From a candidate division WOR-3 bacterium (GTDB lineage: Bacteria > Hydrothermota > Hydrothermia > Hydrothermales > Hydrothermaceae): a stretch of DNA of 36,814 nt. Positions 1,572 through 9,340 of the stretch are shown here, one piece after another. How positions within the stretch are numbered: the stretch's first letter is position 1; the number at the start of each line of letters is the position of its first letter. The DNA lies in the NCBI GenBank assembly GCA_039803745.1, contig JBDRZD010000009.1, positions 1 to 36,814 of the forward strand, written 5' to 3'. Made by a program: the position numbers and the translations under genes. The notes beneath the pieces are model-generated. The model was not told the DNA's origin and searched no databases. It worked only from the letters and a program-made list of their open reading frames with translations.

Positions 1572-3383
1572 ATGAAAAAGATAAAAAGATTAGGGGAAAT
1601 GCTTATAGAAGAGGGGCTTTTAAAGGAGGAAGATTTAGAAAAAGCACTTGAATATCAAAAGAAAAATGGTAAAAGGCTTGGTTCAGTTCTTCTTGAACTT
1701 GGTCTTGTAAAAGAAAAGGATATATTAAAGGTTCTTTCAAAACAGTTTAATGTTCCTGTTGCAACAAAAAAGGACTTAGAAAATATAAGTGAGGATATAA
1801 TTAGACTTATTCCTCCTGATGTTGCTGCAAGATATTTAATTGTTCCTGTTGCAAGAAAAGGTAAAAGTTTAATCCTTGCGATGGTTAATCCTCTTGATCA
1901 GTTTGCAATAGAGGATGCAAAATTTATATCAGGTTTTGATATTATTCCTGTTGTTAGTCTTGAAGATAATATAAGGGAAGCCATTAAAAAATATTATGGG
2001 ATTGAAGATGTTATGGATATGCTTGCAAAAGTTGGAGAAGAAGGGGAGATTGAAGTTATTGGAAAAGGGGGAATGGATAAAGCAGGAAAGGATGATTTGG
2101 GAATTGTCGGGGTAGAGGATGAGGAGTTAAAAGTATTGATTGAAAGTGGTGAAATTCTTAAAGAGACACCAAGAGCTGAAGAAGAGGAGATAAGTGATAT
2201 ACTTGCAGAGGTTGAAAGTGGACCTATTGTTAAACTTGTTAACACAATTATATCCGATGCTGTTGAAAGAAGGGCTTCTGATGTTCATATTGAACCTTAT
2301 GAAAATGATGTAAGGGTAAGATACAGAATAGATGGTATTCTGCATGAGATTTTCAGGAAGCCAAAGAAGTTTGCGGCTCCTATGGTCGCAAGGATTAAGA
2401 TAATGGCAAAGATGAAACTTGAGGAAAAAAGAAAGCCACAGGATGGAAGAATAAGGGTTAGGATGGGTGATAGGATGGTTGATTTAAGAGTTGCAACAGT
2501 TCCAACAGTATTTGGAGAAAAGGTTGCAATAAGAATTTTGGATAGAACCCAGATTCCTTTAAGGCTTGATGCACTTGGCTTTGAACCTGAATCTCTTGAA
2601 ATTTTCAGGAAAGCAATTAGAAATCCAAACGGAATAGTTCTTGTTACAGGACCAACAGGATGTGGAAAAACAACAACTCTTTATGCTGCTTTAACAGAAC
2701 TCAATTCAATTGAGGTTAATATTTCAACAGTTGAAGACCCTGTTGAGTTTACTTTGATGGGGATAAATCAAGTTCAGGTTAAAGAAGAGGTTGGTATGAC
2801 TTTTGCTTCAGGATTAAGGGCATTCTTAAGGCAGGACCCTGATATTATTATGGTTGGCGAAATAAGGGATTTTGAGACTGCTGAGATAGCAATAAGGGCA
2901 TCTTTAACAGGACACCTTGTTCTTTCAACAGTTCATACAAATACTGCTGCTGCAACAGTAACAAGGCTTATAAATATGGAAATAGAGCCATTTTTGATTG
3001 CTTCTACCTTACTTGTTGTTAGTTCACAAAGGCTTGTAAGGAAAATATGTGAGTCATGTAAGGTTCCTTACCAGCCTGAAAAGGCAATACTTTATGAACT
3101 TTCCCCTAATCCAGAGGAGGTATTTAAAGGGGTAACTTTTTATAAGGGAAGTGGATGTAAAAAATGCCATGGAACAGGATATAAAGGAAGGATTGGTCTT
3201 TTTGAAGTTTTACCTGTTACAAAAAGAATAAGGGAGTTAATACTTGAAAGAGCACCAACCCATATTATTGAAAAGGCAGCAATTGAGGAAGGTATGCTCA
3301 CATTGAGAGAATCTGGTATAAGGAAGATAAAGGCAGGTGTTACAACACCTGAAGAAATAATAAAAGAGACAAAGATGGAATAA
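1572..3383 (+). CDS. pilB: Type IV pilus assembly ATPase PilB/GspE family, paralogue 1, with N-terminal MshEN domain
   Basis: Tandem RLGxxLxxxG..L...L..Q motifs, ASDVHIEP, Walker A GPTGCGKT, EDPVE, RQDPDIIMVGEIRD, His box and a tetracysteine Zn motif. Confidence 0.93.
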   Translation: MKKIKRLGEMLIEEGLLKEEDLEKALEYQKKNGKRLGSVLLELGLVKEKDILKVLSKQFNVPVATKKDLENISEDIIRLIPPDVAARYLIVPVARKGKSLILAMVNPLDQFAIEDAKFISGFDIIPVVSLEDNIREAIKKYYGIEDVMDMLAKVGEEGEIEVIGKGGMDKAGKDDLGIVGVEDEELKVLIESGEILKETPRAEEEEISDILAEVESGPIVKLVNTIISDAVERRASDVHIEPYENDVRVRYRIDGILHEIFRKPKKFAAPMVARIKIMAKMKLEEKRKPQDGRIRVRMGDRMVDLRVATVPTVFGEKVAIRILDRTQIPLRLDALGFEPESLEIFRKAIRNPNGIVLVTGPTGCGKTTTLYAALTELNSIEVNISTVEDPVEFTLMGINQVQVKEEVGMTFASGLRAFLRQDPDIIMVGEIRDFETAEIAIRASLTGHLVLSTVHTNTAAATVTRLINMEIEPFLIASTLLVVSSQRLVRKICESCKVPYQPEKAILYELSPNPEEVFKGVTFYKGSGCKKCHGTGYKGRIGLFEVLPVTKRIRELILERAPTHIIEKAAIEEGMLTLRESGIRKIKAGVTTPEEIIKETKME

Positions 3384-3384
3384 A

Positions 3385-8460: not shown

Positions 8461-9340
8461 AATTTTTATTGAAAAACTCTCAAAAGTAATGGGGAATTAT
8501 GCTGGTGTGAGAAATCTTTTAAAAGAGATAATGGAGTATATATTAAAGGAGGAAAATCTTGATGCAGTTTTTATATACAGGAAGATAAAGGATAAAATTT
8601 GTTTGTGGGAAAAAAAGGGAGAAGTAGATTTACCTTTGGCTTTAAATAAAGAAAAGGAGTTTAATTTTGAAAATGATTCTTATTTTATAGAAACAATCTC
8701 ATCTTTCAAAAAAGAAGATGCAATCTTTGGTGCTTTTAAAAGGGAAATAAATAAGGATAGAATTAAAGAATACCTTCCTTTAATAGAAATAGTTTATCAA
8801 AGCATTACGCTTAATGAAAAGATGCAGGAACTCCTTATAAGGGATGATTTGACAGAACTTTCAAATTCAAGGTATTTTCATTTAATGCTTAAAAAATATA
8901 TTGCTAACAAAAAATATTATCCTATAACATGTATATTTCTTGATCTTGACAACTTTAAAGAGATAAATGAGGCTCATGGACATATTATTGGTGGAAAAAC
9001 ACTTAAAGAAGTTGGGAAAAGACTAAATTTGCTCTTTGAAAGTTTTCCAGGAGCAGTTCTTACAAGGTATGGTGGAGATGAGTTCACGATTTTGCTTCCC
9101 AATGTGGGTTTAGAGGAGGGTAAGGCAATTGCGATAATGCTGAAAGAAAATTTTGAAACAAAAGAATTTGAAGTTTCTAATTATAAGTTTTTTATAACTG
9201 CAAGTTTTGGGGTAGCAACTTTCCCAACTTCAACAGAAAATCCTGATAAACTTTTAGCACTCGCTGATAAAGCAATGTTTAAAGTAAAGGAAAAGGGTAA
9301 GAATAATGTAGGAGTTGCATATTCTGAGAGCGATTTTTAA
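8447..9340 (+). CDS. GGDEF-domain dinucleotide cyclase with small N-terminal (possibly GAF-like) domain; atypical base-specificity residue
   Basis: [36 protein letters not shown] and ADKAMF..K..GKN; overlaps the upstream gene by 14 nt. Confidence 0.92.

Follow-up and report, generated by a model that had tools for sequence, protein, structure and literature searches.

We analyzed a 36,814-nucleotide (nt) stretch of DNA from a candidate division WOR-3 bacterium of the order Hydrothermales (contig JBDRZD010000009.1, GenBank assembly GCA_039803745.1), hereafter the window, in which the ATPase genes of a type IV pilus run directly into a cyclase-like gene and a gene for a GGDEF-domain protein. 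An earlier note, made from the sequence alone, had described five tightly spaced genes behind one sigma70 promoter, with a class III cyclase-like gene and an atypical GGDEF gene in the slot normally held by pilC and intact tandem MshEN motifs in both PilB ATPases, and had proposed that synthases and receptors form a local circuit controlling pilus extension, possibly through a non-canonical dinucleotide. All window coordinates are numbered on the whole stretch. The source genome (G000) measures 1.67 Mb and is 93% complete; G004, G005, and the L-numbered loci are relatives. The features of the locus are as follows, with lengths in amino acids (aa).

1537..1565, plus strand: sigma70-type promoter upstream of pilB1, TTGACA-17-TATTAT, an 11/12 match.
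1572..3383, plus strand: pilB1, extension ATPase, 603 aa (TIGR02538, NF053729), with tandem MshEN motifs at aa 6-58 (1587-1745).
3385..5109, plus strand: pilB2, extension ATPase, 574 aa (TIGR02538, NF053729), with tandem MshEN motifs at aa 4-56 (3394-3552).
5130..6206, plus strand: pilT, retraction ATPase, 358 aa (TIGR01420, 495.8 bits).
6208..8460, plus strand: orphan cyclase-like gene, 750 aa, TTG start, with the cyclase domain at aa 453-750 (7564-8457).
8447..9340, plus strand: GacA/Hypr-like GGDEF gene, 297 aa, with the GGDEF domain at aa 132-287 and the Gly183 codon at 8993-8995.
9355..11382, plus strand: ligA, NAD-dependent ligase gene, 14 nt after the GGDEF gene.
11379..11891, plus strand: nadM, archaeal-type nicotinamide mononucleotide adenylyltransferase gene, overlapping ligA by 4 nt.
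2..118, minus strand: type IV pilin gene, probably pilA by its translation, of which the contig end leaves only the N-terminal part; divergent from pdxJ.

The open reading frame (ORF) calls between 1572 and 9340 bear out the five genes and their gaps of 1, 20, 1, and -14 nt, and the cyclase-like and GGDEF genes are likely co-transcribed with the motor genes. The promoter is the top-scoring of 48 promoter-like sites in 12 kb; because shuffled sequence gives 46.9 such sites, the scan alone means little. Recurrence across relatives is better evidence for the predicted pilB1 promoter: TTGAC[A/T] lies upstream of pilB1 in all three own-family loci and in 16 of the 18 from other lineages. The site is thus conserved in most relatives, with the sister family lacking it (0/6 loci). 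The -10 element stops only about 6 nt before the pilB1 ATG, for which reason the pilB1 mRNA is probably leaderless; no Shine-Dalgarno sequence is present here or in many lineages (L154-L171), and the trait is probably conserved. The five-gene extent given by the earlier note is probably too short: given the 14-nt gap to ligA, the 4-nt overlap of nadM, and the fact that no terminator-like site is listed between the GGDEF gene and ligA, the transcription unit probably comprises seven genes, in the window's own family only. One RNA run (X3) yielded 101 reads, mostly on the pilin gene, and two other runs of the same study yielded zero; the few sense reads of X3 on pilB, pilT, and ligA, with none on the cyclase-like or GGDEF gene, are too shallow for an assessment of co-transcription.

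Both PilBs are type IVa extension ATPases with Walker A/B and zinc motifs. PilB2 scored 732.7 bits against TIGR02538 (cut-off 675.65) and 75.2 bits, above the cut-off, against NF053729; PilB1 scored 664.4 bits against TIGR02538, just under the cut-off but still its best family, and 67 bits, likewise above the cut-off, against NF053729. Scored against the consensus RLGxx(L/V/I)(L/V/I)xxG(L/V/I)(L/V/I)xxxxLxxxLxxQ (PMC5013675), each carries tandem 24-residue MshEN motifs separated by a 5-residue linker, with 21 of 22 scored positions matched and a single Leu-to-Ile change, and the motifs are thus intact in both motors as claimed. Both are intact in Hydrothermales. Elsewhere, the motifs of the PilB adjoining pilT are degenerate or unmatched in families f13, f22, f25, and f26 and in two single-PilB genomes (loci L154-L156, L167, L168, L172, and L173).

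Among other families of the same class, pilC directly follows pilT in 19 of 20 loci, and the remaining locus ends at a contig edge. In all ten Hydrothermales loci, which come from both families and differ in their flanks, the orphan cyclase-like gene directly follows pilT instead, and the GGDEF gene comes next wherever the contig extends far enough; pilC of the source genome sits on another contig. The signaling genes do therefore occupy the pilC slot. The order pilB-pilB-pilT was found in 18/18 sampled loci of other classes, with pilC next in 16 and neither signaling gene within about 7 kb. It follows that the tandem PilB is old and that the junction with the signaling genes is a Hydrothermales rearrangement; the dual PilB, considered as a peculiarity of the window locus, was rejected as such, being the usual arrangement in these lineages.

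Two side observations concern the motor genes of relatives. At sister-family loci L015-L020, a run that we take from its sequence to be recR-mglB-mglA-cinA directly precedes pilB1; MglA and MglB set pilus polarity in Myxococcus, and the source genome gave an mglB-like match and none for mglA. In L015 (3101-4972) and L157 (3394-5108), pilB1 is split into two ORFs, through either an assembly error or a real break.

Neither Pfam nor NCBIfam gave a match for the 750-aa orphan protein or for eight relatives. Its structure model (predicted local distance difference test score 84.7) showed that the C-terminal third (aa 453-750) has a class III cyclase fold: structural alignment with CyaB (3R5G) gave Z 17.6 and a root-mean-square deviation of 2.6 Å over 184 aligned residues (VIA), compared with Z 12.4 for the best GGDEF domain, and Foldseek matched the domain to CyaC (1WC1) with E 2.5e-6. 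The cyclase-like assignment of the earlier note was thereby borne out. Residues were assigned by motif against the scheme of PMC3591389 and a canonical cyclase on source-genome contig C10. The orphan keeps D461 and D506 as metal-binding aspartates, K502 and D623 as adenine-type residues, R598 for phosphate binding, and N630, and Leu634 replaces the catalytic arginine; in class III cyclases this Asn and Arg normally lie four residues apart on helix 4 (N1025 and R1029). Both metal aspartates, Lys502, Asp623, and Arg598 are invariant across 29 GGDEF-adjacent cyclases. The N-terminal 450 residues are helical and, folded alone, found only helical-hairpin structural matches (Z at most 10.1) and no Foldseek match at E ≤ 0.001, a result that establishes no fold, whether novel or known. 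Only two further proteins came from a search for distant cyclase relatives by profile, and Atlas feature matches at 0.95 led to unnamed Acidobacteriota-rich clusters.

The cyclase family divides into two clades (FastTree support 0.99 and 0.94) with complementary arginine patterns. Clade B, which includes the window protein and adjoins the GGDEF gene, has Arg at 598. In clade A, residue 598 is mostly Gln and the position of N630 is Arg throughout (31 Gln/Arg and two Arg/Arg domains); its genes stand in tandem before a clade B gene or elsewhere, often before valS, and one itself adjoins a GGDEF gene (L023). The split may recall the division of labor in heterodimeric cyclases. Neither a profile search nor tblastn found a clade A cyclase in the source genome, which has clade B only. 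The same genome encodes four other class III cyclase-like proteins and four small proteins that bind cyclic nucleotide monophosphates (contigs C10, C32, C63, C11, C19, C42, and C68).

In the window GGDEF protein the motif itself is canonical and intact; what is atypical is the specificity site, where Gly183 replaces the guanine-reading aspartate. Ser141 stands at the cross-dimer site, and the RxxD inhibitory site is absent. The best match among solved structures is Geobacter GacA (6D9M), both for the window protein (97.1 versus 86.3 bits) and for the family GGDEF profile (192.4 bits, against 154.1 for PleD). In GacA, Ser348 replaces the guanine-reading Asp, and the S348D change gives a pure diguanylate cyclase; enzymes whose cross-dimer residue is Tyr, Ser, Ala, or Gln produce mostly cGAMP (3′,3′-cyclic GMP-AMP) (PMC6456294). 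The window protein has the GGDE[F/Y] motif and the non-Arg cross-dimer residue of the Hypr enzymes, and Gly instead of Ser/Thr at the position of GacA 348; as Gly is outside the published signature, we call it Hypr-like rather than a member of the Hypr group.

The specificity site is Ser in 28, Gly in 24, and a gap in one of the 54 GGDEF domains at family loci (three of the loci being duplicates), and the single Asp belongs to an unrelated gene on the opposite strand. Among the 120 nearest database proteins (121 domains), 78 have Ser, 39 Gly, two Ala, and two Asp. The position is Gly in all Hydrothermales, and Gly recurs in several other branches. An ordinary cyclic di-GMP (c-di-GMP) synthase was rejected on sequence, since the guanine-reading Asp is replaced by Gly and none of the cassette partners has Asp. 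As to descent from the GacA subfamily, a FastTree tree from which GacA is absent sets the Asp-less domains apart at a branch with a support of only 0.70. By sequence, a GacA-like GGDEF domain devoid of the guanine-reading Asp would probably make a non-canonical dinucleotide, as the earlier note had suggested. The three other GGDEF proteins of the source genome are canonical Asp/GGEEF synthases encoded elsewhere.

The partners of the cyclase outside Hydrothermales are Rec-GAF-GGDEF or GAF-GAF-GGDEF proteins. The GAF domain of one relative matches 5W10 (E 4.6e-34), which we take to be the cAMP-binding GAF of Lcd1, followed by 1YKD, presumably that of a cyanobacterial cyclase. A motif that we take to be of cyclic-nucleotide type, NK..F...D, is present in 41/41 non-Hydrothermales partners and 0/11 Hydrothermales partners. 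In the window protein the N-terminal domain (aa 1-128) is eroded: it did not match the GAF profile of the relatives (HHalign probability 0.3%) and is GAF-like by predicted fold only (TM-score 0.67-0.78, under the Atlas bar).

The cyclase family occurs in 106 of 272 genomes of the phylum and also in TA06 and Edwardsbacteria records. With a threshold on the GGDEF profile set high enough to leave out the source genome's three canonical GGDEFs, 88 genomes carry the synthase; 86 have both genes, 20 the cyclase only (14 of them in family f13), two the GGDEF only, and 164 neither, counts that include kin and so are not independent. Of 67 loci in the genome collection, 66 have a called ORF, and in 48 of these the GGDEF gene directly follows the cyclase gene, mostly overlapping or abutting it. 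Genes for the pilus adjoin the pair in only 3/66, all Hydrothermales; elsewhere it sits, depending on the lineage, behind PmbA/TldD or rhomboid genes or behind genes that we take from their sequence to be pyrR-pyrB-pyrC or ruvX-mltG. The old unit is thus the cyclase-GGDEF pair, and the pilT junction is confined to Hydrothermales: in a synteny survey as proposed in the earlier note, the pair is linked to pilT in all Hydrothermales loci and unlinked elsewhere. The pair does keep company with the pilus at the level of genomes. pilT is present in 99/106 cyclase-positive genomes and 50/166 others, every cyclase-positive family has it, and 16/16 sampled cyclase-positive genomes outside Hydrothermales have pilB-pilB-pilT.

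We tentatively favor, at somewhat less than an even chance, a reading in which an old relay from cAMP to cGAMP, of the GacB kind with attached cyclases, serves the dual-motor pilus lifestyle and, in Hydrothermales, became part of the motor operon and shed its cAMP step. The pair would be an old signaling cassette passed down along with the type IVa pilus system that has two PilBs. In the more complete version, that of other lineages of WOR-3, TA06, and Edwardsbacteria, divergent class III cyclases would make cAMP, probably as a heterodimer of complementary paralogues; cAMP would bind the GAF domain encoded by the next gene and switch on the GacA/GacB-type GGDEF domain of the same protein, which would then make 3′,3′-cGAMP or a cGAMP-rich mix. 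Such a relay is suggested because the relatives carry cAMP-type GAF domains and usually a second cyclase with the complementary arginine. In the Hydrothermales ancestor, a pilB-pilB-pilT-pilC run would have been broken after pilT and the cassette inserted there, a placement that would make it co-transcribed with the motors. Since the second cyclase and the cAMP-binding GAF features appear to have been lost in this order, the cyclase-like protein would more likely act on the Gly-type synthase as an ATP-binding partner, probably by contact, than through cAMP. The dinucleotide would tune pilus or surface behavior through some receptor, for which a protein is implied because no riboswitch regulon was found in these phyla, and the main ligand of the two MshEN domains would be the c-di-GMP that the three ordinary synthases make.

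Several observations weigh against this relay. The catalytic Arg is at its canonical place in none of 100 scored family domains of either clade, and cAMP need not come from the orphan gene, because the source genome has other class III cyclases, one of them with intact Asn and Arg. The product of the window GGDEF is a guess from sequence, the Hypr signature being Ser/Thr, and the literature searched yielded no experimental test of Gly at the specificity site. As for the association with the pilus, it counts for the relay that Hydrothermales PilT groups with dual-PilB, mostly cyclase-positive lineages and apart from its class-mates (SH-aLRT 95), in a quick tree whose approximately unbiased (AU) test is unfinished; the class-mates lack the cassette, and the 16/16 of them with a pilB match show one pilB each (four candidates scored per genome). 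These two results fit joint inheritance or joint loss and also plain ancestry, and the co-distribution with the dual PilB may itself reflect shared ancestry. The dual PilB occurs in family f14 with no cassette, and f13 has the cyclase but lacks the GGDEF. Downstream, GEMM-I riboswitches were found in 9/80 genomes of cassette-bearing lineages and 0/71 of the other set, with none in the source genome (no control genome gave a match either), and in 9 of 11 matches the specificity position is G, not A (mostly G20, in what we take to be the A20/G20 numbering), so that these riboswitches lend the relay no support. No Rxx(Q/N) HD-GYP was found in G000, G004, or G005, only RxxA/S and RxxR forms. In Myxococcus xanthus, cGAMP alters pilus motility by only about 20%.

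The relay might also be unrelated to pili and its place after pilT a chance outcome, specific to the lineage, of how operons are packed when the genome is small, an account that we consider doubtful but take seriously. It would explain why a different housekeeping run precedes the pair in each lineage and why so few loci adjoin pilus genes. It sits poorly with a junction kept in 10/10 Hydrothermales loci despite their differing flanks, with the presence of pilT in every cyclase-positive family, and with the single PilB of the class-mates that lack the cassette.

A local circuit of the kind proposed in the earlier note, in which the GGDEF protein would make c-di-GMP or another MshEN-accepted dinucleotide beside the motors and control extension through PilB1 and PilB2, seems to us unlikely. 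Likely co-transcription, two intact MshEN domains, and a GGDEF domain free of the RxxD inhibitory site would suit it, and Hypr enzymes also make c-di-GMP (PMC9140294). Vibrio MshEN does bind cGAMP, weakly, at 330 μM as compared with 0.5 μM for c-di-GMP (PMC5013675), and it is this preference of about 660-fold, along with the three canonical synthases elsewhere, that leaves the circuit unproven. Further points against it are the guanine-reading Asp missing from all cassette GGDEFs, the degenerate PilB2 MshEN motifs and the unlinked pair of several cassette-bearing lineages, an operon that seems to run into ligA and nadM, and the absent catalytic Arg. A dedicated synthase-receptor circuit is therefore unsupported.

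That both Hydrothermales proteins are catalytically dead and form a nucleotide-sensing scaffold like the degenerate pilus-motor regulators is improbable: the absent catalytic Arg, the partner paralogue not found in the source genome, the eroded GAF, the Gly at the base-reading site, and a class III cyclase-like ATP-binding protein on record (6YII) would fit, but the 29 cyclases show no variation in the metal aspartates, Lys502, Asp623, or Arg598, the cassette synthases show none in the GGDEF motif, metal-binding Asp residues, or His-x-x-Gly motif, and Gly recurs in lineages whose GAF is intact.

The favored relay from cAMP to cGAMP can be taken further, in a version that we regard as a long shot. 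A split adenylyl cyclase, with each of two paralogues contributing a share of the active site, and a cGAMP synthase would together be the ancestral controller of the two-motor pilus, as old as the phylum, and the Hydrothermales form would be a cAMP-free complex in which the Gly-type GGDEF makes a dinucleotide mix that is read differently by the two PilBs or by a protein receptor. If true, it would represent a new GGDEF specificity class and the first case of a protein linking cGAMP to a pilus motor. The cassette is in any case a compact test set: its GGDEF specificity site varies naturally between Ser and Gly, its cyclase family is invisible to Pfam and possibly works as a bacterial heterodimer, and in one lineage the sensor and the partner appear to have been lost where the pair joined the pilus operon. 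All the proteins are soluble and amenable to work in vitro, and the host here is probably thermophilic. A WOR-3 isolate with pili is known from class Hydrothermia (PMC12285271).

Candidate erasers and one unusual riboswitch also came to light. The fourth residue of the HD-GYP motif is other than R/K in 6/10 cyclase-positive genomes with a match and 0/4 cyclase-negative ones, a weak contrast from a small, regex-parsed sample; among HD-GYP variants, only Q/N has been experimentally tested in print. Rec-HD-GYP proteins with RxxA or RxxS (C3 24296-25816; L226 and L231) are candidate erasers of the cassette product in Hydrothermales. A GAF-HD-GYP protein with canonical RxxR (C20 5704-6816) is a possible cAMP-controlled c-di-GMP phosphodiesterase, since the profile of the relatives' cAMP-type GAF finds its GAF domain with E 5e-41. 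At L192 (791-869, minus strand), an A-type GEMM-I stands among G-type orthologues in f18, before a secreted protein gene.

An Rfam scan of the window gave no match. The pilin gene holds the same position in G004; its start has the best coverage in run X3, where reads end at 127 and 131, and the spacer at 220-250 contains repeated TTGCAAA words. A 1033-aa protein (23026-26127) combines a stretch resembling a methyl-accepting chemotaxis protein signaling domain (weak, E 8e-5) with a family 5 solute-binding domain.

Among the closest known systems is GacB of Myxococcus xanthus, a GAF-Hypr GGDEF protein activated by cAMP (bioRxiv 10.1101/600031). The relatives share its architecture of GAF and Asp-less GGDEF domains and, as proposed, its relay from cAMP to cGAMP; unlike GacB, the synthase gene here is coupled to a cyclase gene, and the window enzyme has Gly for Ser, an eroded GAF, and no RxxD. 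Lcd1 of Leptospira, a GAF-GGDEF protein activated by cAMP that makes c-di-GMP (PMC8846402), resembles the relatives' partners in its GAF domain (their best match being 5W10), whereas the window protein lacks these GAF features. With GacA (6D9M, PMC6456294), its closest structure, and Bdellovibrio Bd0367 (PMC9140294), the window GGDEF shares GGDE[F/Y] and the non-Arg cross-dimer residue; it differs in the Gly at 348, the different phylum, apparently the linked cyclase, and the lack of a detected cGAMP riboswitch regulon, such riboswitches standing upstream of pilus assembly genes in the Geobacter/GacA system (PMC6456294). The cyclase domain has the fold, metal Asp pair, and adenine-type Lys and Asp of CyaB (3R5G) and CyaC (1WC1). 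Unlike these and the heterodimeric cyclases (PMC3591389), it has no catalytic Arg, carries a 450-aa helical N-terminal region, and lies below Pfam detection, and the two paralogue clades with complementary arginines further distinguish it from CyaB and CyaC. The motors match the MshEN-PilB ATPases (Vibrio MshE, PMC5013675; reviewed in PMC11656802) in their intact tandem 24-residue motifs and depart from MshE systems in having two tandem PilB paralogues in one operon and a neighboring synthase that is not a canonical diguanylate cyclase. Hypr-type cGAMP signaling has been characterized in a few deltaproteobacterial lineages. In the literature searched, outside which lie most subscription journals, none of the papers listed brought GGDEF or cGAMP together with WOR-3, TA06, or Edwardsbacteria. 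Neither the Gly variant nor the cyclase family coupled to a Hypr-like synthase was among the matches listed, and both are thus apparently undescribed, although the parts appear to work like known ones; the window contributes the eroded, pilus-linked form of the cassette, together with its two complementary cyclase clades and its co-distribution with the dual PilB.

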